The notes: generated by a model from the sequence alone, not told the origin. Shown: positions 5,494 to 45,670, counted from the stretch's first letter. The stretch is 64,000 bases of DNA from Acidimicrobiia bacterium (GCA_041747855.1 JBGTEJ010000048.1:19018-83017); one strand, 5' to 3'. Program-made: numbers and translations.

Positions 5494-6317
5494 CAATTCT
5501 TGGCTTTTCCTGGTTGACACCCGAGCCTGCCCAGGCGCAGGGGTCCGTGGTCTACATCGCGTGTTGGACCGCGCTCGAAATGGACCCCGTCCTTGGTCAT
5601 CAAGTGCAAGTCACGCGATGCCGTCTGGCCGGTGGGGAGATCGTCGAGTACCGACGGGAGACCGATATCCCTCTCGTCCTCAACCCGAATCTTGGTGTGG
5701 ACAACGACGGTGTTTGCTGGTTCCTCACCTCGATGTCGACCCCGTACGTCATCGTCGACCAGGCGGCCAACGGGGAAGCATCCATCGCCTTCGACCCTCC
5801 CACAGGTGGCAACTCTTCATTGGTCCCTCTCGGGTACTTTCGCCGCTGCACGTCCGAACCCAGGGTGGGTGTCTGGGAGGAGGGTCTGATCTGGGAGTAC
5901 CTCGCCAGCTATCTTCACCCCCCACCCACACCCGAAATGAGTCCTCCCACCGGTTTCGGGGTTACGGGTGTGGCGGCTTTCGCCGGTGTGGAAGTCCCGG
6001 GGACCCACCGGGCCGTCATAGGCGATCCGATCAACCAGTTGGAACTGGAGGTCAGGGTCATTGCTGTGGTCATCGACTGGGGTGACTACAGCGTCGTCAC
6101 ATATCCGCCTAGCCAAGGGGTCCTGGCCGGCTTTCCGGATGGTGGAGCCTGGCATCTGTACACCGCAAAGAACGGGACGACCACCCTGTCAGTCTCCTAC
6201 GTCTGGGACGTCCGCTGGCGCAGTGGCGGCGCTCCATGGCAGACCCTGAACGTCCCACCGACCACTACGACTCTCGTCTATCCCGTGTCCGAGATCATCT
6301 CAGTGCTGTCTCGCTAG
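5460..6317 (+). CDS. Hypothetical secreted protein (signal peptide ...PAQAQG)
   Basis: 285 aa with a Sec-type signal peptide, MGIRLRTFAFVAILGFSWLTPEPAQA. It overlaps the previous gene by 34 nt. The start is uncertain and no recognisable domain was found. Confidence 0.45.
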   Translation: MGIRLRTFAFVAILGFSWLTPEPAQAQGSVVYIACWTALEMDPVLGHQVQVTRCRLAGGEIVEYRRETDIPLVLNPNLGVDNDGVCWFLTSMSTPYVIVDQAANGEASIAFDPPTGGNSSLVPLGYFRRCTSEPRVGVWEEGLIWEYLASYLHPPPTPEMSPPTGFGVTGVAAFAGVEVPGTHRAVIGDPINQLELEVRVIAVVIDWGDYSVVTYPPSQGVLAGFPDGGAWHLYTAKNGTTTLSVSYVWDVRWRSGGAPWQTLNVPPTTTTLVYPVSEIISVLSR

Positions 6318-19055: not shown

Positions 19056-19065
19056 TGCTCTCCTC

Positions 19066-19185
19066 CCTCTGTGCCTACGGGGTTAGCTGCCGGGCTCGGG
19101 CTGGAAGGTGCCCTACCCGGCTTTCGCCGGGATTCGCCCCGTTGTCGGGTCCCCCGTCCCGATCACTCGGGTTCGGCGTCACGGA
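19066..19185 (-). promoter_or_regulatory. c-di-AMP riboswitch (ydaO-yuaA / kimA class) in the 5' leader of the CPA-USP antiporter gene
   Basis: The minus-strand RNA reads 5'-GACGCCGAACCCGAGUGAUCGGGACGGGGGACCCGACAACGGGGCGAAUCCCGGCGAAAGCCGGGUAGGGCACCUUCCAGCCCGAGCCCGGCAGCUAACCCCGUAGGCACAGAGGGAGGAG-3'. Both pseudo-symmetric halves (GCCGAAcCC...GGGACGGGGGAcCC and GGGGcGAAUCC-hairpin-UAGGGCACC) and the 3' segment CCCG.GCCCGGCAGCUAACCCCGuAGGCA fit the ydaO architecture as recalled from the T. tengcongensis crystal construct. The SD lies immediately 3' of the aptamer. Confidence 0.6.
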
Positions 19186-19325
19186 ATCGTACCCGTTCGT
19201 GAGCAAACATCAGACGCCAACACGCTACGACCCTTCCGCCGGGCCTAGCCTCCCTGCCAGAGCGCGGTGCCACACAGGCGGCCGCCTCGTGTTCGTCAGC
19301 GACACCGATGCTGTAGGGTTATCAG

Positions 19326-32953: not shown

Positions 32954-33376
32954 TCAGCCGAGAGATGCGGAGAGTGATATGTCCACATTTCCGGCCAGGG
33001 CTTTCGAGACCGGGCAGTTGACCTTGGCCGTCTCCGCCAACTCGACAAACTGCTCTTCAGATATGCCGTCGACGACCCCCACAACCGACAGCTCCATGGT
33101 GGTGATACCGGTTCCGGGAACGAAGGTTGCGGTGGCTTCCACATCGAGACTCGTAGCGGGAGTTTGGTTCTTGGCCAGGATGTTGGAGAAAGCCATCGAG
33201 AAGCAGGATGCATGGGCACCAGCGATCAACTCCTCGGGGGTGGTGGTGGCCTCCTCACCTTCGGCACGAGCCTTCCAGTTCACCGGGAGTGGCCCGACGG
33301 CGCCACTTGCGAAACTGGTCACTCCGCTTCCACTGAACAGGTCGCCTTCCCAATGGGTCTGCGCGGTGCTCTTCAT
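32954..33376 (-). CDS. OsmC/Ohr family peroxiredoxin-like protein
   Basis: 140 aa: GAHASCFSMAF...AKVNCPVS (two conserved Cys). Confidence 0.8.
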   Translation of the reverse strand: MKSTAQTHWEGDLFSGSGVTSFASGAVGPLPVNWKARAEGEEATTTPEELIAGAHASCFSMAFSNILAKNQTPATSLDVEATATFVPGTGITTMELSVVGVVDGISEEQFVELAETAKVNCPVSKALAGNVDISLSASLG

Positions 33377-33435: not shown

Positions 33436-33858
33436 TCAGTCTTCGACGGTGATGTTGCCCCTCATCTCGGCGTGGATACCGCAGAAGTACTCGAAGGTCC
33501 CGGCCCGCTCGAAGGTGTAGAAGAAGCTTTGGCCCGTGAGAGTCCCGCTGTTCCAACCACCTTCGGTCGAGGTCCAGGTGTGAGGGAGACTGTCATCATT
33601 GGTGACCAGAATCGTGTCCCCAACACCGACCGTGTCAGGCCCGGAGAACGCGAATCCCTCGATCCTGAGTTCATGGTCCGCGTCATCCGGAATCGTCGTG
33701 GTCGAACCTGCGACCGTCGACGAAGTGTCGGTGCTCCCGGTGGTGGTGATTGGTTGGCTGATCGTGGTGGTGGGCAGGCTGCTCGTCGTGGTCCCGGCCG
33801 TTCCACCACATCCAGTGACCAGTGCCAGAACACAGGCAATCACAATCGACCTACGCAT
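33436..33858 (-). CDS. Lipoprotein with cupredoxin (plastocyanin/pseudoazurin-like) domain
   Basis: Lipobox LVTGCGG, a Thr-rich linker, and copper-ligand context HTW...YFCGIHAEMRG. Confidence 0.6.
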   Translation of the reverse strand: MRRSIVIACVLALVTGCGGTAGTTTSSLPTTTISQPITTTGSTDTSSTVAGSTTTIPDDADHELRIEGFAFSGPDTVGVGDTILVTNDDSLPHTWTSTEGGWNSGTLTGQSFFYTFERAGTFEYFCGIHAEMRGNITVED

Positions 33859-33906: not shown

Positions 33907-35409
33907 CTATCGGTTCGCCGGGAACCCAAGATCGACACCTCGGTGGATCGGGTCAGCCCACCTCGAGATCACAACCTTCTGACGGGTGTAGAAGTGGACC
34001 CCTTCCGGGCCGTAGATTGCATGACTCCCGAAGATGGAGTCCTTCCAGCCACCGAATGAATAGAAGGCGAGGGGCACCGGAATCGGAACATTGATGCCCA
34101 CCATCCCGACCTGGATCTCGCTGGCGAACTTCCGAGCCGCACCGCCGTCGTTGGTGAAGACGGCAGTGCCATTTCCGTATCGGTTGGAGTTGATCAGCGC
34201 GATCGCCTGGTCGAAGTGCTCCATGCGCACCGTCGACAGGACCGGTCCGAAGATCTCGTCCTGGTAAATCGACATTTCGGGCGTCACCTGATCGAAAAGA
34301 GTCGGGCCGAGGAAGTAGCCATCCTCATGACCGTCGACTTTCAGGCTCCGCCCGTCGGCCAACAGGTGGGCACCCTGCTCGACACCAGACCCGATGTATC
34401 CACGCACCCTGTCGAGATGCTCCTTGGTGATCAGAGGACCCATGTCAACTCCGGGCCGGTCTCCAGGACCTACTTCGATCTTTTCCATTCGAGCCTGTAT
34501 TCCGTCCAGAAGACGATCGCCCGCCTCTCCGACGGTCACCAGCGCCGATATAGCCATGCACCGCTCCCCGGCCGACCCGAACCCGGCTGACACCGCCGCG
34601 TCGGCCGCCAGATCTATGTCGGCGTCCGGCAGAACGATCATGTGGTTCTTGGCCCCACCGAGAGCCTGCACACGTTTCCCGTGACTGGTACCGGTCTCGT
34701 ATATGTGCCGAGCGATCGGGGTCGACCCGACGAAAGAGATTGCAGCCACACCGGGGTGGGTGATCAAGGCTTCAACCGCCTCGCGATCTCCGTTGACGAC
34801 GTTGAACACTCCGCCGGGAAGTCCCGCCTCCGCCAGCATCTCGGCGGCCATAAGAGAGACGGAAGGATCTCTCTCCGAAGGCTTGAGAATGAAGGTGTTG
34901 CCGGTCGCGATGGCCAATGGGTACATCCACATAGGCACCATCGCCGGGAAGTTGAACGGAGTGATCCCCACCACCACACCAAGCGGCTGTCGCATGGTGT
35001 AGGTGTCGACACCCGTTGTGACCTGTTCTGAGAACTCTCCCTTCTGAAGATGGGCGATATTGCAGGCAAACTCGACGACTTCGAGACCCCTCTGGACTTC
35101 TCCGAGAGCGTCATCGAGGGTTTTTCCATGCTCCGCGGTCAGCTGCGCGGCTATGTCCCGACGACGGGCCGCGACTAGTTCCCGGTAGGCAAACATAATG
35201 TTCTGCCTCTGTGTGAGCGAGGTGACCCGCCAGGTTTCGAAGGCCCGGGCGGCGGTTCCGACTGCCAGGTCGACGTCCGCCGGGGTGGCTAGCGCTACCT
35301 CTCCGGTTTGCTCACCAGTGGCCGGGTTGAATACCGGCCCGTGGCGGGTGGATCCACCGGGTGTCGGAGCCCCGCCGATCCAGTGCTGAATCTGCTTCAT
35401 ACCATCCAA
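33907..35409 (-). CDS. mmsA: CoA-acylating methylmalonate/malonate-semialdehyde dehydrogenase
   Basis: 500 aa ALDH with ILKPSERDPS, catalytic Cys in GSAGERCMAIS, and EIFGPV. The start is 35409 or the ATG 9 nt downstream (MKQIQHWIGG). Confidence 0.9.
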   Translation of the reverse strand: MDGMKQIQHWIGGAPTPGGSTRHGPVFNPATGEQTGEVALATPADVDLAVGTAARAFETWRVTSLTQRQNIMFAYRELVAARRRDIAAQLTAEHGKTLDDALGEVQRGLEVVEFACNIAHLQKGEFSEQVTTGVDTYTMRQPLGVVVGITPFNFPAMVPMWMYPLAIATGNTFILKPSERDPSVSLMAAEMLAEAGLPGGVFNVVNGDREAVEALITHPGVAAISFVGSTPIARHIYETGTSHGKRVQALGGAKNHMIVLPDADIDLAADAAVSAGFGSAGERCMAISALVTVGEAGDRLLDGIQARMEKIEVGPGDRPGVDMGPLITKEHLDRVRGYIGSGVEQGAHLLADGRSLKVDGHEDGYFLGPTLFDQVTPEMSIYQDEIFGPVLSTVRMEHFDQAIALINSNRYGNGTAVFTNDGGAARKFASEIQVGMVGINVPIPVPLAFYSFGGWKDSIFGSHAIYGPEGVHFYTRQKVVISRWADPIHRGVDLGFPANR

Positions 35410-35424: not shown

Positions 35425-35934
35425 TCAGCCGGGTCTGGTCGGTGGCGGTCGTTCGGGGATGGTGGTCGTTGTAGGTGGAAGGGTCGGTGGCGGCCGGGGC
35501 AATGTGGTTTCGGTTCGCCCGGGGACAGTGGTGCTGGTTGTGGGGCTTCGGTGACCCTCCCCATCCCTCTCCGGCTCCGTGGTCGTGGTGGGGTTCGGTC
35601 TCTGGTCGGTCGTGGGGATCGTCCCCGACGATCCGGACCCTTCATCGAGCTGACTATCGAAGCTGGCCGAGTCGAGTTCGGGAAGTCTGATGTTGACACG
35701 CTCCATGGCCTGGCGCACCGGATAGAGAAGATCTCCGGGAGCCGAACGCTCGGCGGCAAATGCGACAACCGGAAGCAGGAGGACGAGCGAGACGGCTACG
35801 GCCAGGATCCGTCCGGGTCGAGTCCGATGAGAGCGCGCCTCCCCCAGAACACGATCAATCGTGTCGAGATGACGCTCTCTGGTGGCGGCATCAACTTCGA
35901 TACGGGCCCGACCGAGGTGCTCACGCCATCTCAT
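35425..35934 (-). CDS. Putative anti-sigma factor (single TM, extracytoplasmic Pro/Thr-rich region)
   Basis: It overlaps the ECF sigma gene by ATGA. It has a cytoplasmic ~45 aa segment, a TM (ILAVAVSLVLLLPVVAFAA) and a PT-rich tail. No ZAS motif. Confidence 0.5.
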   Translation of the reverse strand: MRWREHLGRARIEVDAATRERHLDTIDRVLGEARSHRTRPGRILAVAVSLVLLLPVVAFAAERSAPGDLLYPVRQAMERVNIRLPELDSASFDSQLDEGSGSSGTIPTTDQRPNPTTTTEPERDGEGHRSPTTSTTVPGRTETTLPRPPPTLPPTTTTIPERPPPTRPG

Positions 35935-36527
35935 GAGTCATCCCCCAGGATCTCCCTCAGCCGGCTCTCGCCCCGTTCGACGAGGCTATAGGCGGCCCGT
36001 CGTGTCGTGCCCAGCACTGTCGCTATCTCTTCGCCGGTAAGGCCGACCACGTTGGCAAGCAGGACAGCCGCCCGTTGCCTACTGCCCAGCATCGACAAAG
36101 CGGTCTCGAGTTCTGGACCGAGTTGGTTCTGCAAGGGGTCGTCTTCTACCGAGATGTCGGGAACACTGTGGTGTGGCACTTCCCGGTTCCTCGACCGGCG
36201 ACGGTACTCGTCCAGACATCCGAATCGGACCGAGCGAAACAGCCAGGACCGCAGAGACCGGCCATCTCCCTTGAGTTTGGGCGCTGCCTTGACCAGTTCC
36301 ACGAACGTCTGCTGGACAATGTCCTCGGCAGTACGTCGGTCCCCCACCATCGCAAATGCGAACGAGGCGAGGTCATCGACGGTGGCGTGATAAACGGCCG
36401 CAAAGGCAGTGTTCGATCTGGCCCGAATACCGTCGATATGGACGTCGAGCGGATGCGGCGGGGTGTGGGTCACACTCGTGATCCACACCCCCGATGAGGC
36501 TGTCTGCGGGAGAGCGCTGACAGACAT
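35931..36527 (-). CDS. ECF (sigma-24-type) RNA polymerase sigma factor
   Basis: Region 2 reads AEDIVQQTFVELVKA, and region 4 reads LGSRQRAAVLLANVVGLTGEEIATVLGTTRRAAYSLVERG. Confidence 0.8.
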   Translation of the reverse strand: MSVSALPQTASSGVWITSVTHTPPHPLDVHIDGIRARSNTAFAAVYHATVDDLASFAFAMVGDRRTAEDIVQQTFVELVKAAPKLKGDGRSLRSWLFRSVRFGCLDEYRRRSRNREVPHHSVPDISVEDDPLQNQLGPELETALSMLGSRQRAAVLLANVVGLTGEEIATVLGTTRRAAYSLVERGESRLREILGDDS

Positions 36528-36540
36528 CCCATGCCGCCGG

Positions 36541-36984
36541 TTAGAGAAGGCCCAGGTGGACCAACAGACGGATCAGCATCTTCCAGTCGCCTGCGTTGAC
36601 GATCCTCCAGAACAATTGCCTGTAGTTGGGCTTGCTCGGACATCTCGGATGATTATCGGTCTCCGCCCCGCATCGATCCACCCGATCCTGACAACGGGGG
36701 TGCTCGGGACGGACCTCACACCGATCCACAGGCTCCTGGCATTTCGGATCATCCGGGGTCTGTTCGCAGTCCACCTGCTGACACCGGGGGAGTTCGGGCC
36801 GGCTATCACAGGGGTCCTCCGGGGGCCGACTCTGCTGACATCGCGGCAGTTCCGGCATTCGTTCACATAGAGCGGGAGACCCGCGGTCTGCGTCGTCGGT
36901 AGCCACCGCGAGGGCCGGTACCGCCAATGGGACAAGGACCACCAGAGCGGTGAGCAGTGAGGCGATTCGGGTTCTGGTTGACAT
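36541..36984 (-). CDS. Secreted Cys-rich repeat protein (PE[LH]PRCQ repeats)
   Basis: It has a signal peptide (MSTRTRIASLLTALVVLVPLAVPALA), then repeats ...PELPRCQQ...PELPRCQQ...PEHPRCQD...HPRCPS, mirrored by ~24-nt direct repeats in the DNA. It lies 13 nt upstream of the ECF sigma gene on the same strand. Confidence 0.55.
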   Translation of the reverse strand: MSTRTRIASLLTALVVLVPLAVPALAVATDDADRGSPALCERMPELPRCQQSRPPEDPCDSRPELPRCQQVDCEQTPDDPKCQEPVDRCEVRPEHPRCQDRVDRCGAETDNHPRCPSKPNYRQLFWRIVNAGDWKMLIRLLVHLGLL

Positions 36985-37041
36985 GTTTCTCCTTCCGTCT
37001 CATTTACAGACGCCGGAGAAACGATTCATTCCCCGCCCGGT

Positions 37042-37519: not shown

Positions 37520-38566
37520 TCAGTCGGCTGAGGGGTCTGCGGGATTCTTCATGCGCCTGCGAACGATGCTTGCCAGTGCGGCAACGATCACTCCTGCGAG
37601 CAAAAGCAGCCAGACAGCCGAGGACTCCACCATCTCGACCGCCATCCGATAGTCCGCCTCTATCGCCACGGGCATGAAGACATCCGAGTCACCGAAGATG
37701 CTTGCGGCAAATCCGGCCTGAACACCCGAAGCCGAGAACCGCATACCGCCCGAACCGTCGGAACCACCACCGGCGGACGCTCCCACGTCTCCACCGTCTG
37801 GTGGCTCGGAAGCGGGAGCAGAGGTAGTGGTGACCCTTTCGACCGCGGTGGTGGAGGTGGTGCGCGGCGCAGTTGTGGTGGGCTCGGGCGTTGTGGTTGT
37901 CGACTGGGCAGGGATCGTGGTCGAGGTCGTTGATGTGCTCGACGTGGGCTTGGTGGTCGTCGTCGTCCCGGCGACGGTGGTGGTTGTCGATTCACCTTTC
38001 TCCAGGACCTTGACAGTGTCGACGAGGGCCTGGAAGCCGAGGGTCCCTTCAACGGAGAACCTCACTGCCATCTCTTCGGCCCCCCCGGTCTCAACAGAGA
38101 GAAAGCGATGCCGCGATCCCTTTCCAATCAGATCTTCTACCGGCTCCGTGTGAACCTTGATCCATTCCTCCCCGTCGAATGAGATCTCCAGGCACAGGGT
38201 CGCACCACCATCAATGAGTGCAAGCTTGGTGCCAGCCACCTGGAAGCTGACCTCGGCCATGTTGAACCTGGCGACATCGGCCCAGCGGACAGCTCCGACG
38301 GCATGAGAACCGAGCGGTGCCGCCAGTTGAAGACAGAGCCCATCAGGGCAGGTCGAATTCAGGGCTACCGAGACATCGCCAAGAGCGGCCCCGCCGCCGT
38401 CATTCCACTCGGTCCAGGGTCCCGACCAGGTGAGGCTCCCGTCGTTGCCCGAGAAGCTGATCGTCTTGAATTCGTCTTTGTAGTAGCCAGGCGAGGCGGC
38501 ATGGGCCACCACGGTGGCCGAAGCCACCAGCATGACTACCGCAATCGACACGGCCGCCTTCTTCAC
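37520..38566 (-). CDS. Secreted, C-terminally membrane-anchored hypothetical protein with Thr-rich linker
   Basis: It has a signal peptide, a ~190-aa globular domain, a TTTTVAGTTTTTKPTSSTSTTSTT linker and a C-terminal TM plus RRRMK stop-transfer. ATGA overlap with the HK gene stop. Confidence 0.5.
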   Translation of the reverse strand: MKKAAVSIAVVMLVASATVVAHAASPGYYKDEFKTISFSGNDGSLTWSGPWTEWNDGGGAALGDVSVALNSTCPDGLCLQLAAPLGSHAVGAVRWADVARFNMAEVSFQVAGTKLALIDGGATLCLEISFDGEEWIKVHTEPVEDLIGKGSRHRFLSVETGGAEEMAVRFSVEGTLGFQALVDTVKVLEKGESTTTTVAGTTTTTKPTSSTSTTSTTIPAQSTTTTPEPTTTAPRTTSTTAVERVTTTSAPASEPPDGGDVGASAGGGSDGSGGMRFSASGVQAGFAASIFGDSDVFMPVAIEADYRMAVEMVESSAVWLLLLAGVIVAALASIVRRRMKNPADPSAD

Positions 38567-39939
38567 GACGACGGTCCAGCCATGACGGGTGTCTCCGTCC
38601 GCGCGGTTGGGTCGAACCCGGGAACCGAGAGAACGAAGTAGGACTTGCCGGCGAACCTCTGATACTTAATCTGTCCGTTCATACGGTCTGCAAGCCGGGA
38701 AGCCACCGCGAGACCCAAGCCGACGCTTCCGGCTACCAGCGGACTCGACCCACTGTTGGCATAGGGGGCGAACAGATGCGGCACCCTTTCCTCGGGTACG
38801 CCCGGCCCGTCATCCCAGACCTCGATGTCGACGGCGTCACCCTCGGCGGTGACCTCGATACCAATCCGGCCGCCCCCGTGCCGTGCGGCATTGGAGATGA
38901 GGTTGACGAGAATGTGCCTGAGTCGGGCCGCGTCGACCTGCGCCACTGTGCCGTTCAGCTGTCGCTTGACTTCGAGGCCCGCTCTCTCGAACGGGGCAAT
39001 GGCACTTTCGACGACCGAGGCGATACGGGTGGGAAGAACTTCCATTTCGACCCCGGTGCTATCGAGGCGGGACGCCACAATCAAGTCATCGACCATCCTG
39101 GAAAGTTCGGCAGCCTCGTTGGCGATGATGCCGGCGAGTTCCCTGGACTGGGTGTCGGCGCCACCGTCAGTGCTGTCGGCCAGTATCTCGGCGAAGCCAT
39201 AGATCGAGGTGAGCGGTGTCCGTAGCTCGTGGGAGAGGCCGGCGATGAACTGGTCCTTTGCCCTGCTCACTTTTCGTTCAGCTTCCAGCTCGAGTCGTGA
39301 GTTCTCCTTCTGCTGGACGATCTGCCGTCTTGCGATCCACCAGTAGAGGGTCACCGCGGCAGCGGGGAGCACGAGGGTCATGGCAAAGAGAATGAGACCG
39401 TTGACTCTCTGACCCATCTCTGTATTGAGCGCGATGGCCTCCTGAATATCGTCCTGTTCGAGCCGTAGGGATTCGATCAGGTCCGTGAAGTGTCCGTCGA
39501 GAGCCTCGATTGCGGTCCTGGCAGCAATCAAATCGGAGGCTCCGAGGGCTTCGCGGGTCGCCTCGGCGGAGGATACGAAGACGGCGAGGAACCCTTGCGA
39601 GCTGCTGTGCCCGCTTCCAGCCTCGAGCTCCACCAGTTCTGCCAAGGATCCGGCGACATGGTCGAGCGCGAACTGGAGATCGTCAGCGGAGGCCTCACCC
39701 CGGCTATGAAGCTGAGCGAAGGTAAGCGCCTGCGCCAACGCCGCACGGGTAAGGGCGGCTGATCCCGAGGCGGCGTTGGCCCAGTGGAGTGAGGCAGCAT
39801 TGACAGCCACCTTGGAGGCACTTACGGAGTTGGCAAACGCGATCCCGGCTCCCACGAGGACCACGACCAGGGAGACACTGATCGCAGCGGCGACCCGTCG
39901 GTGGCCGGTCCAGATCGGGGCTCTGCCCTCCTTGCCCAT
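38563..39939 (-). CDS. Sensor histidine kinase (HisKA + HATPase_c), two TM with periplasmic sensor; no cognate response regulator adjacent
   Basis: H-box FIAGLSHELRTPL, N-box LVNLISNAARH, and G-boxes DDGPGVP / GSVGLGLAV. Confidence 0.85.
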   Translation of the reverse strand: MGKEGRAPIWTGHRRVAAAISVSLVVVLVGAGIAFANSVSASKVAVNAASLHWANAASGSAALTRAALAQALTFAQLHSRGEASADDLQFALDHVAGSLAELVELEAGSGHSSSQGFLAVFVSSAEATREALGASDLIAARTAIEALDGHFTDLIESLRLEQDDIQEAIALNTEMGQRVNGLILFAMTLVLPAAAVTLYWWIARRQIVQQKENSRLELEAERKVSRAKDQFIAGLSHELRTPLTSIYGFAEILADSTDGGADTQSRELAGIIANEAAELSRMVDDLIVASRLDSTGVEMEVLPTRIASVVESAIAPFERAGLEVKRQLNGTVAQVDAARLRHILVNLISNAARHGGGRIGIEVTAEGDAVDIEVWDDGPGVPEERVPHLFAPYANSGSSPLVAGSVGLGLAVASRLADRMNGQIKYQRFAGKSYFVLSVPGFDPTARTETPVMAGPSS

Positions 39940-45419: not shown

Positions 45420-45670
45420 GATGGTGCTCGGTTAGCGCCGGATGACCCGGTCATGGTTCTGCTCCTTTGTCTCACATGAAACGCTTGAGAGAGAACCGTG
45501 AGCCTGAGCCCAAGGTAACTCATCGTCCCAGGCATTGGCACCGTGCTCGGCCCTGTGGCTCTGTCGGTTGCCGCGGCGTCAAAGGGCCTGATCCCTCAGC
45601 CGCTCTAGATGAGCGTTTCTGCTCCACAGGATATCGGCGCGACCCGCCTATTGACAAGACCCAACCCGCA

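Follow-up and report, generated by a model that had tools for sequence, protein, structure and literature searches.

Conserved uncharacterised genes beside ECF sigma factors are common, and ECF sigma factors themselves represent the third major bacterial signalling mechanism. For most ECF groups, to our knowledge, neither the signal nor the component that senses it has been identified. In the stretch of Acidimicrobiia DNA analysed here (64 kb in full length; hereafter the window), a gene for a small cysteine-rich protein stands in front of an ECF sigma gene and a gene for a putative single-TM anti-sigma factor. What does this protein, here called X, contribute to the pair encoded behind it? 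A sequence-only reading of the window had placed the X gene 13 nt upstream of, and co-oriented with, the two other genes, and the coordinates agree: 13 nt separate the stop codon of X from the ATG of the sigma gene (36527). The features discussed below are collected in Table 1.

Table 1. Features of the X operon and of the genes that follow it in the window
Feature	Position	Strand	Basis or remark
ECF-type promoter motif: -35 GGGGAAT (37034..37028), 14-nt spacer, -10 GCGTCT (37013..37008)	37008..37034	(-)	motif match
Shine-Dalgarno AAGGAG of X, 4 nt before ATG	36989..36994	(-)	read directly
X, putative operon cistron 1	36541..36984	(-)	147-aa predicted secreted protein
Sec-type signal peptide of X (aa 1-28, ALAVA/TDD)	36901..36984	(-)	read directly
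Five C-x8/9-C Pro-rich loops, variable stalk (aa 40-115)	36640..36867	(-)	Cys spacing; pLDDT <60
Last Cys loop C105-x9-C115 (D-R-C...D-N-x-P-R-C)	36640..36672	(-)	sole conserved Cys pair of X
Amphipathic two-helix hairpin, NYRQLFWRIVNAGDWKMLIRLLVHLGLL-end	36544..36627	(-)	alignments and AF2
ECF sigma	35931..36527	(-)	Sigma70_r2 and Sigma70_r4_2 domains; conserved ~25-aa N-terminal extension
Putative single-TM anti-sigma	35425..35934	(-)	ATGA overlap with sigma; alignment A4
Possible downstream cistron, aldehyde dehydrogenase	33907..35400	(-)	same strand
Possible downstream cistron, cupredoxin-like lipoprotein	33436..33858	(-)	same strand
Possible downstream cistron, OsmC	32954..33376	(-)	same strand

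X is a real gene for a predicted secreted protein

Translation bears out the first description of X: the protein has 147 residues, a Sec-type signal peptide and four P..P[RK]CQ motifs. The N-terminus, read from the translation, consists of M-STRTR, 20 hydrophobic residues and ALAVA/TDD. This corresponds to a positively charged n-region, an h-region and a final AxA site, with acidic residues after the core, and the AF2 model contains a helix at residues 4-21 of the signal peptide. The same sequence of basic residues, hydrophobic stretch and AxA is present in all full-length members of the family in our alignments. Given this layout the rest of the chain should be extracytoplasmic, and mature X is accordingly a predicted exported protein. 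A lipobox is absent from X, and no family member has a Cys at position +1.

The GC content of X by codon position (0.69/0.49/0.68) matches that of the neighbouring genes, and AGGAG or GGAG is found at the position of its Shine-Dalgarno sequence in the orthologous loci. In a comparison with the closest relative found, in locus L084, the last 28 codons comprise 18 identical, 7 synonymous and 3 conservative ones. Sequence comparison of this kind establishes X as a real gene, under purifying selection. X shows each of the features tested as marks of its family, namely the C-terminal pattern described below, D-R-C-x9-C and synteny with the ECF sigma of the clade.

A conserved ECF-type promoter motif lies in front of X

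Between loci, the 130 nt in front of X cannot be aligned, apart from one motif that lies at the same place in 14/14 upstream regions inspected. Its consensus is G(G/T)GGAAT(C)-N12-(C/T)G-GCGTCT(C)TA, with TAAT in two regions and GAAG in one as the variants. From its end to the X start codon there are 23-36 nt, and the AGGAG Shine-Dalgarno sequence follows it. GGAAT and CGTC at a fixed spacing make up the usual shape of an ECF promoter.

GAAT-N15-CGTCY has a single match in the 64-kb window, at the X promoter; the motif is present once per orthologous locus, always upstream of X, and occurs at the chance rate of ~0.1 per locus in ~70 unrelated loci. A metagenome scan with the strict pattern returned 14 matches, of which three are further X promoters; the other 11, including four copies of one unrelated coding region, fall in unrelated sequence, show no recognisable link to X or to the sigma clade, and thus tell nothing about further members of the regulon. 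Because a conserved ECF-type promoter and a strong Shine-Dalgarno sequence precede it, X is most likely the first cistron of an autoregulated operon, for which we infer both sigma-dependence and co-transcription. The promoter is assigned presumptively to the sigma factor of the same operon, by its ECF-like form and position only.

X accompanies one clade of ECF sigma factors

The sigma factor of the window has sigma2 and sigma4 domains only, as expected of an ECF (group 4) sigma factor, with Pfam scores of 58.1 bits for Sigma70_r2 and 36.8 bits for Sigma70_r4_2. It passes TIGR02937 (sigma70-ECF; 66.6 against a cutoff of 42.9) and none of the named ECF subgroup models (SigE-fam_strep TIGR02983, PRK05602, BldN TIGR02952, SigM and others). 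The best subgroup matches reach 90 bits against a cutoff of 208 and 84.4 against 141.55, and all 83 matches besides the superfamily model are below cutoff. A genome scan gave ten orthologues at 52-66% identity, from MAGs of Acidimicrobiia and other Actinomycetota, the next matches being at 32% or less; the sigma factor of L084 is 75% identical to that of the window. Residues 1-27 (36450..36527, minus strand) carry an extension, GVWI..LT....HPLD.H..GIR.RS, before the sigma2 core. It is also found in L001-L009 and is kept in orthologues with as little as 60% identity. In certain ECF groups, BldN/ECF121 among them, an N-terminal extension has a regulatory role (PMC7826278).

X is found directly upstream of the orthologous sigma gene in 17/17 independent loci, ten of them reached by the genome scan with the sigma factor and seven from relatives of X. 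Synteny was the check that the sequence-only reading had asked for, and the loss of synteny that would have spoken against it was not seen. In each of the ten sigma-first loci, the gene immediately upstream is a co-oriented X-family ORF. In all seven X-first loci X is followed by an ECF sigma gene and, in six, by an unannotated co-directional gene directly after it; the seventh, L088, belongs to a low-coverage assembly with fragmented gene calls. The gap between X and sigma is 7-13 nt in most loci. Among the matches and loci examined, no member of the X family was seen in another context or architecture.

The flanks of the three genes can be unrelated to those in the window: L081 and L086 have MFS transporters there, and L082 has dienelactone hydrolase and glyoxalase. 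A convergent two-component system comes after the anti-sigma gene in L001 and L003, so the operon consists of three genes only. In the window, gaps of 24, 48 and 59 nt separate the successive genes for the anti-sigma factor, aldehyde dehydrogenase, cupredoxin-like lipoprotein and OsmC, and a scan for terminators and sigma-70 promoters was uninformative, with no convincing terminator. This downstream string is kept only in a subclade and is absent from L001, L003, L081 and L082, which places it outside the core module. An F420-type PPOX gene precedes the operon in the window subclade.

Two details of the downstream string can be added. The trio of aldehyde dehydrogenase, cupredoxin-like protein and OsmC follows the operon in L084 too, and the cupredoxin-like protein of the window has 140 residues, a lipobox (LVTGC) and a Thr/Ser-rich linker.

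The X family is defined by a C-terminal hairpin

Neither an exact-sequence look-up of X nor a word-indexed homology search with X alone returned a match. Exhaustive phmmer against 1.84 billion representatives yielded ~14 true relatives, and a profile search 31. The family amounts to ~50 clusters, so far only from metagenomes of Acidimicrobiia and other Actinomycetota, and all members are annotated as 'hypothetical', the PT repeat being the only precomputed Pfam match. Our own searches likewise found no Pfam or NCBIfam family for window X or its 31 relatives, PT repeat aside. The literature searched contains no description of Acidimicrobiia ECF systems or of the X family, and nothing relevant on DUF5667, a family considered below. 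X defines a previously undescribed and unannotated small-protein family, of which the C-terminal hairpin is the defining feature.

In alignments A1, A2 and A3 the members are built alike, from a signal peptide, a middle that is hypervariable, charged and Pro-rich, and a near-invariant end. This end runs D-R-C-x4-D-N-P-R-R-C, a short linker, N-x-R-x-L-x-W-R-L-x2-A-x-E-W-x-K-L-x-R-L-L-x2-L-G-x-L, then the stop. In its family-defining form it is R-x-L-x-W-R-x3-A-x2-W-x4-R-L-L-x2-L-x3-COOH after D-R-C-x9-C, and window X has all the invariant columns. R122, R127, A131, W134, L140 and L144 of the hairpin are invariant in the three alignments, as are R104, C105 and C115 in A2; three Arg are invariant in the conserved C-terminal part. 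In the AF2 model computed with A2, the only confident parts are the signal-peptide helix and the C-terminal helices 121-131 and 134-144 (pLDDT 83-89, against less than 60 in the middle). Both C-terminal helices are amphipathic, their hydrophobic moments being 0.54 and 0.43. X shows neither a globular nor an enzymatic domain, and conservation is confined to the ~45 C-terminal residues. As read from these alignments, the conserved element of X is the terminal Cys loop together with the C-terminal helical hairpin, not the Cys repeats.

A profile of the C-terminal 48 residues gave no meaningful match in the PDB. Against a set of 5.8 billion proteins, in a word-indexed and non-exhaustive search, it retrieved only three expected matches and no fusion or alternative architecture. 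By hhalign, the hairpin has no relationship to the anti-sigma alignment.

An extreme C-terminus that alone is conserved, preceded by an export signal and a hypervariable spacer, is similar to the layout of pro-peptides with a C-terminal mature part. X might on this ground be the precursor of a released C-terminal peptide of ~28-45 aa, cationic and amphipathic, which would act as a bacteriocin-like molecule or as a signal; the anti-sigma factor would sense it in an autocrine or quorum-type positive loop. The computed net charges of the tail (+3) and the linker (-7), and an operon that is autoregulated to judge from its promoter motif, would suit such a precursor. However, the linker between stalk and hairpin is variable (~5-10 aa) and contains no conserved processing site, and the conserved module includes no dedicated protease, transporter or immunity gene. 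We know of no precedent for an ECF anti-sigma factor that senses a self-encoded peptide, and regard a released peptide as highly unlikely.

The repeat region of X disrupts assemblies and gene calls. In L005, a run of N lies within the X gene (5538..5963). In L084 (4644..5141), the public gene call covers the last 46 aa only, while the 165-aa GTG-initiated ORF, with its signal peptide, is intact. Broken assemblies and gene calls of this sort probably contribute to the lack of annotation of the family.

The cysteine loops form a variable stalk

The mature part of X contains ten Cys, at positions 40, 49, 59, 68, 73, 82, 89, 98, 105 and 115. P..P[RK]C is present in four copies, two of PELPRC and one each of PDDPKC and PEHPRC, next to a degenerate DNHPRC, and that number was reached by 0/20,000 shuffles of mature X. 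The direct DNA repeats reported by the sequence-only reading are present, in a modest form: three 36-nt copies with 75% identity lie at 36685, 36775 and 36832, at spacings of 90 and 57 nt. These copies are dispersed and irregular, and TRF detected no tandem repeat.

The number of loops changes from one family member to the next. Most orthologues of X have one or two, one has none, and the range is 0-6; window X has five loops and 10 Cys against six loops and 12 Cys in L084. Across 47 family members, most of them with a single loop, the number of Cys is 0, 2, 4, 6, 8, 10 or 12. The count in the mature part is even in 47/47, and in each of two members with odd totals the extra Cys lies inside the signal peptide. 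Exported proteins of Actinobacteria favour disulfides, and the even counts point to structural disulfides more than to metal or redox chemistry at free thiols. The disulfides that the earlier reading had considered are in this way made plausible, and the metal or redox chemistry that it had named beside them is disfavoured.

In 6/32 members of A2 the Pfam disordered repeat PT (PF04886) takes the place where window X, itself without a PF04886 match, has its Cys loops; orthologues of window X can have a stalk of PT/DRPTD repeats instead. Neither Pfam nor NCBIfam has a model of the Cys-loop unit; its only match is a sub-threshold one to Paramecium_SA (16.8 bits against a cutoff of 21.2). The unit reads C-x2-x-P-x2-P-x-C in window X; as C-x2-(N/T/R)-P-x-(D/H/L)-P-x-C, it is tandemly arrayed in unrelated proteins, P0007 (1351 aa), P0009, P0011, P0018 and P0019. 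These proteins, from unrelated organisms, are large and secreted or C-terminally anchored, with ~4-25 loop units each. In the form C-x2-(N/T)-P-x-(D/H)-P-x-C-(Q), the loop has the look of a stalk repeat that is stapled by disulfides and so far undescribed.

Since loop number varies, PT repeats substitute for the loops and the same loops occur in unrelated surface proteins, the loops would be spacer modules. We conclude from this distribution that the Cys loops of X are in all probability disulfide-stapled spacers, interchangeable with PT-type linkers. The emphasis that the sequence-only reading had put on the Cys repeats is thereby shifted to the hairpin and the last loop, the parts that are conserved. 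The comparison also flags a widespread, unmodelled C-x8-C Pro-rich loop that appears to serve as a stalk in surface proteins.

An exported protein with ten Cys and some His, one nearly invariant Cys pair beside the hairpin and, in the window subclade, a cupredoxin-like lipoprotein, OsmC and aldehyde dehydrogenase as neighbours could also be taken for a sensor, its Cys-rich region responding to a metal (e.g. Cu) or to thiol redox state and signalling to the anti-sigma factor. The range of 0-6 loops and their replacement by PT repeats among orthologues argue against such a sensor, as do the even mature Cys counts, which are those of structural disulfides, and the long stalks that the same loops build in unrelated surface proteins; the OsmC and aldehyde dehydrogenase neighbourhood is subclade synteny only. 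We give this reading very little credence.

It is improbable, too, that X is the true sensor of an undescribed three-component ECF pathway whose anti-sigma factor has shed its sensor domain, with the C105-C115 loop as an envelope thiol-disulfide (oxidative-folding/electrophile) switch. Reduction or modification of the loop would free the hairpin from the juxtamembrane segment of the anti-sigma factor, whereupon the anti-sigma factor would be proteolysed and the operon turned on. In many genomes the operon continues into detoxification genes for OsmC, aldehyde dehydrogenase or glyoxalase.

The putative anti-sigma factor is minimal

The third gene of the operon overlaps the sigma gene by 4 nt (ATGA). 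Its 169-residue product has a basic N-terminal part of ~42 aa, one TM segment (~43-61) and a Pro/Thr-rich tail, with the juxtamembrane motif AAERSAPGDLLYPVRQ directly after the TM segment. Alignment A4 contains ~30 conserved N-terminal residues (FPEL..VR..VD..TR.RHL..I), the TM segment and a juxtamembrane LPV.ALAAE...PGDLLYP.(R/K). We call the protein a putative anti-sigma factor, a label taken from its position, translational coupling and topology only. With a cytoplasmic part of only ~42 aa, it falls outside class I anti-sigma factors, whose ASD has ~80-90 aa (zf-HC2, RskA and RsdA types). At E<=1, no Pfam anti-sigma family matched the window protein or six orthologues, weak DUF5667 aside, and a profile search of the PDB with the anti-sigma alignment found no relative.

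The external part differs within the family. Orthologues score 15-24 bits against DUF5667 (PF18915, a post-TM helical domain with PGD.LYP; cutoff 27 bits; E 7e-5 to 0.03), all sub-threshold, and some of them have a helical DUF5667-like stretch. The window protein has no DUF5667 match, and of the motif it retains no more than the first ~15 residues; in its clade the chain goes straight into the Pro/Thr-rich tail, so that the external part consists of a conserved acidic/Pro motif of ~15 aa and a low-complexity tail.

The ending of X partly follows this difference. X ends in WLGW(L/I) in L001, L002, L003 and L082, where the anti-sigma factor keeps the DUF5667-like segment, and in xLGL(L/I/P) in the window, L084, L005, L006, L007 and L009, where it is without the segment. 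L010 and L081 are exceptions, in which the anti-sigma factor keeps the segment and X ends in HWLGLI and KHLEIV, respectively, and the correlation is thus partial. The pairing may reflect co-variation or simply shared phylogeny.

A partner of the anti-sigma factor or an output of the operon

Strict reciprocal linkage, no effector-like domain and an anti-sigma factor without a sensor domain together argue for a regulatory reading of X. We tentatively favour, at a little below an even chance, a role for X outside the cytoplasm as an accessory or sensor partner dedicated to the putative anti-sigma factor and encoded with it in a predicted self-activating P_ECF-X-sigma-anti-sigma operon. Co-occurrence in 17/17 loci, including those with unrelated flanks and those with three-gene operons, supports this. 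Both the binding of X to the anti-sigma factor and its regulatory role are proposals, and a non-exhaustive search found no fusion (Rosetta-stone) protein of the two.

The partnership might work as follows. X would be Sec-exported from a three-gene, self-activating operon specific to this Acidimicrobiia ECF clade. Outside the cell, it would present a flexible, charged and Pro-rich stalk, one disulfide loop and an Arg/Trp-rich amphipathic hairpin; the stalk would be stiffened by five disulfide-closed C-x8-C loops in window X and be made of PT/DRPTD repeats elsewhere. The hairpin, with three invariant Arg and two Trp, could dock at the outer membrane face onto the juxtamembrane AAE..PGDLLYP.R of the anti-sigma factor, which in this clade itself lacks a folded sensor domain. 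The stability or conformation of the anti-sigma factor would then depend on X, acting either as a co-sensor or as a protector against site-1 proteolysis, and synthesis of X from a sigma-dependent promoter would feed back on the response. The PGDLLYP motif recalls the general family DUF5667, at sub-threshold scores; for many DUF5667 members no X-like partner is known, so the motif may not require X.

As the 64 kb contain a single promoter site and the loci no further one, X might just as well be the output of the operon. It would then be a regulon effector, an envelope protein whose hairpin binds and protects the outer leaflet or the wall under the stress that the anti-sigma factor senses, and would owe its place in the operon to autoregulation only. 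Several observations are in keeping with this: the absence of a second promoter site in the window or the loci, the position of X as the sole non-regulator gene of the operon in L001 and L003, and a hairpin that is strongly amphipathic and rich in Arg and Trp, like interfacial membrane binders. In addition, the Shine-Dalgarno sequence of X is the strongest and that of sigma none obvious, which suggests a higher output of X. But effectors are usually also encoded away from their regulator or have paralogues, and X never is or does in our sample; X has no domain beyond ~45 aa; and the metagenome scan gave, besides X promoters, matches without a recognisable link to X or the sigma clade. We consider an effector possible but rather unlikely. 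If X were merely an output protein, the finding would be routine.

Precedents for an exported third component

In the RseA/sigmaE system of E. coli, the sigma operon also encodes RseB, an exported protein that binds the anti-sigma factor on its external part and controls the proteolysis of that factor. Unlike X, RseB is large, has two domains, binds lipids and is encoded downstream, and X has no match to the MucB_RseB domain.

The preferred reading of X, a partner of the anti-sigma factor, also has a counterpart in CnrYXH of Cupriavidus metallidurans (ECF20), a three-component ECF module with a separate extracytoplasmic protein and a minimal single-pass anti-sigma factor (PMC6851896). The cytoplasmic domain of CnrY has 45 aa in two helices and works with the separate sensor CnrX (PMC6851896); the corresponding part of the window anti-sigma factor has ~42 aa. 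In both systems the accessory gene or genes lie upstream of the sigma gene, in an operon that is sigma-dependent in CnrYXH (PMC6851896) and predicted to be so here. The promoter motif, the Shine-Dalgarno sequence, the predicted signal peptide and the ~42-aa cytoplasmic part fit such an arrangement. The gene order is Y-X-H in the proteobacterial system, against X-sigma-anti-sigma in the actinobacterial one. Moreover, CnrX is a membrane-anchored, four-helix, metal-binding dimer, in contrast to X with its signal peptide, disordered stalk and two-helix hairpin. There is no sign of CnrX homology, as neither X nor 31 relatives match a family and, with respect to the metal-binding His/Glu/Met site of CnrX, no column of His or Met is conserved in A1 or A2.

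Within the actinobacteria, the ECF sigma operon sigE-cseABC of Streptomyces encodes the extracytoplasmic protein CseA, which dampens the response (PMC6767563). CseA differs from X in being a lipoprotein, in being encoded downstream of sigE and in that it is thought to act on a sensor kinase (PMC6767563). The system has no anti-sigma factor and is not autoregulated (PMC6767563), and X and CseA have no similarity.

X can thus be likened to CnrX, RseB and CseA by arrangement, as an analogous component, and is homologous to none of them. With CnrYXH (PMC6851896), CseA (PMC6767563) and RseB as precedents in kind, the three-component arrangement is not as atypical as the sequence-only reading had assumed. 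The module is of a known kind, in which an exported third component is dedicated to an ECF sigma/anti-sigma pair, and is built around an undescribed small-protein family. It offers a compact and tractable candidate for a secreted protein that would gate an anti-sigma factor in a monoderm, with one disulfide loop and a 28-aa hairpin. For the poorly studied, mostly uncultured Acidimicrobiia it also adds a protein family so far without annotation and a candidate consensus for a promoter.

Other features of the window

Upstream of the operon, on the same strand, a gene at 37520..38566 encodes a 348-aa protein that matches no family and has a signal peptide, a region rich in Ser and Thr and a TM anchor at its C-terminus. 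It overlaps by 4 nt a histidine kinase gene (38563..39939, minus strand). In L085, a kinase gene and then a 332-aa gene lie upstream of the X operon on the same strand; they are likened to those of the window by size only. Farther away, the window contains two riboswitches on the minus strand, both full-length and above the Rfam gathering score: a c-di-AMP (ydaO-type) riboswitch at 19058..19188 (89.9 bits) and a SAM-I riboswitch at 45517..45615 (65.9 bits).
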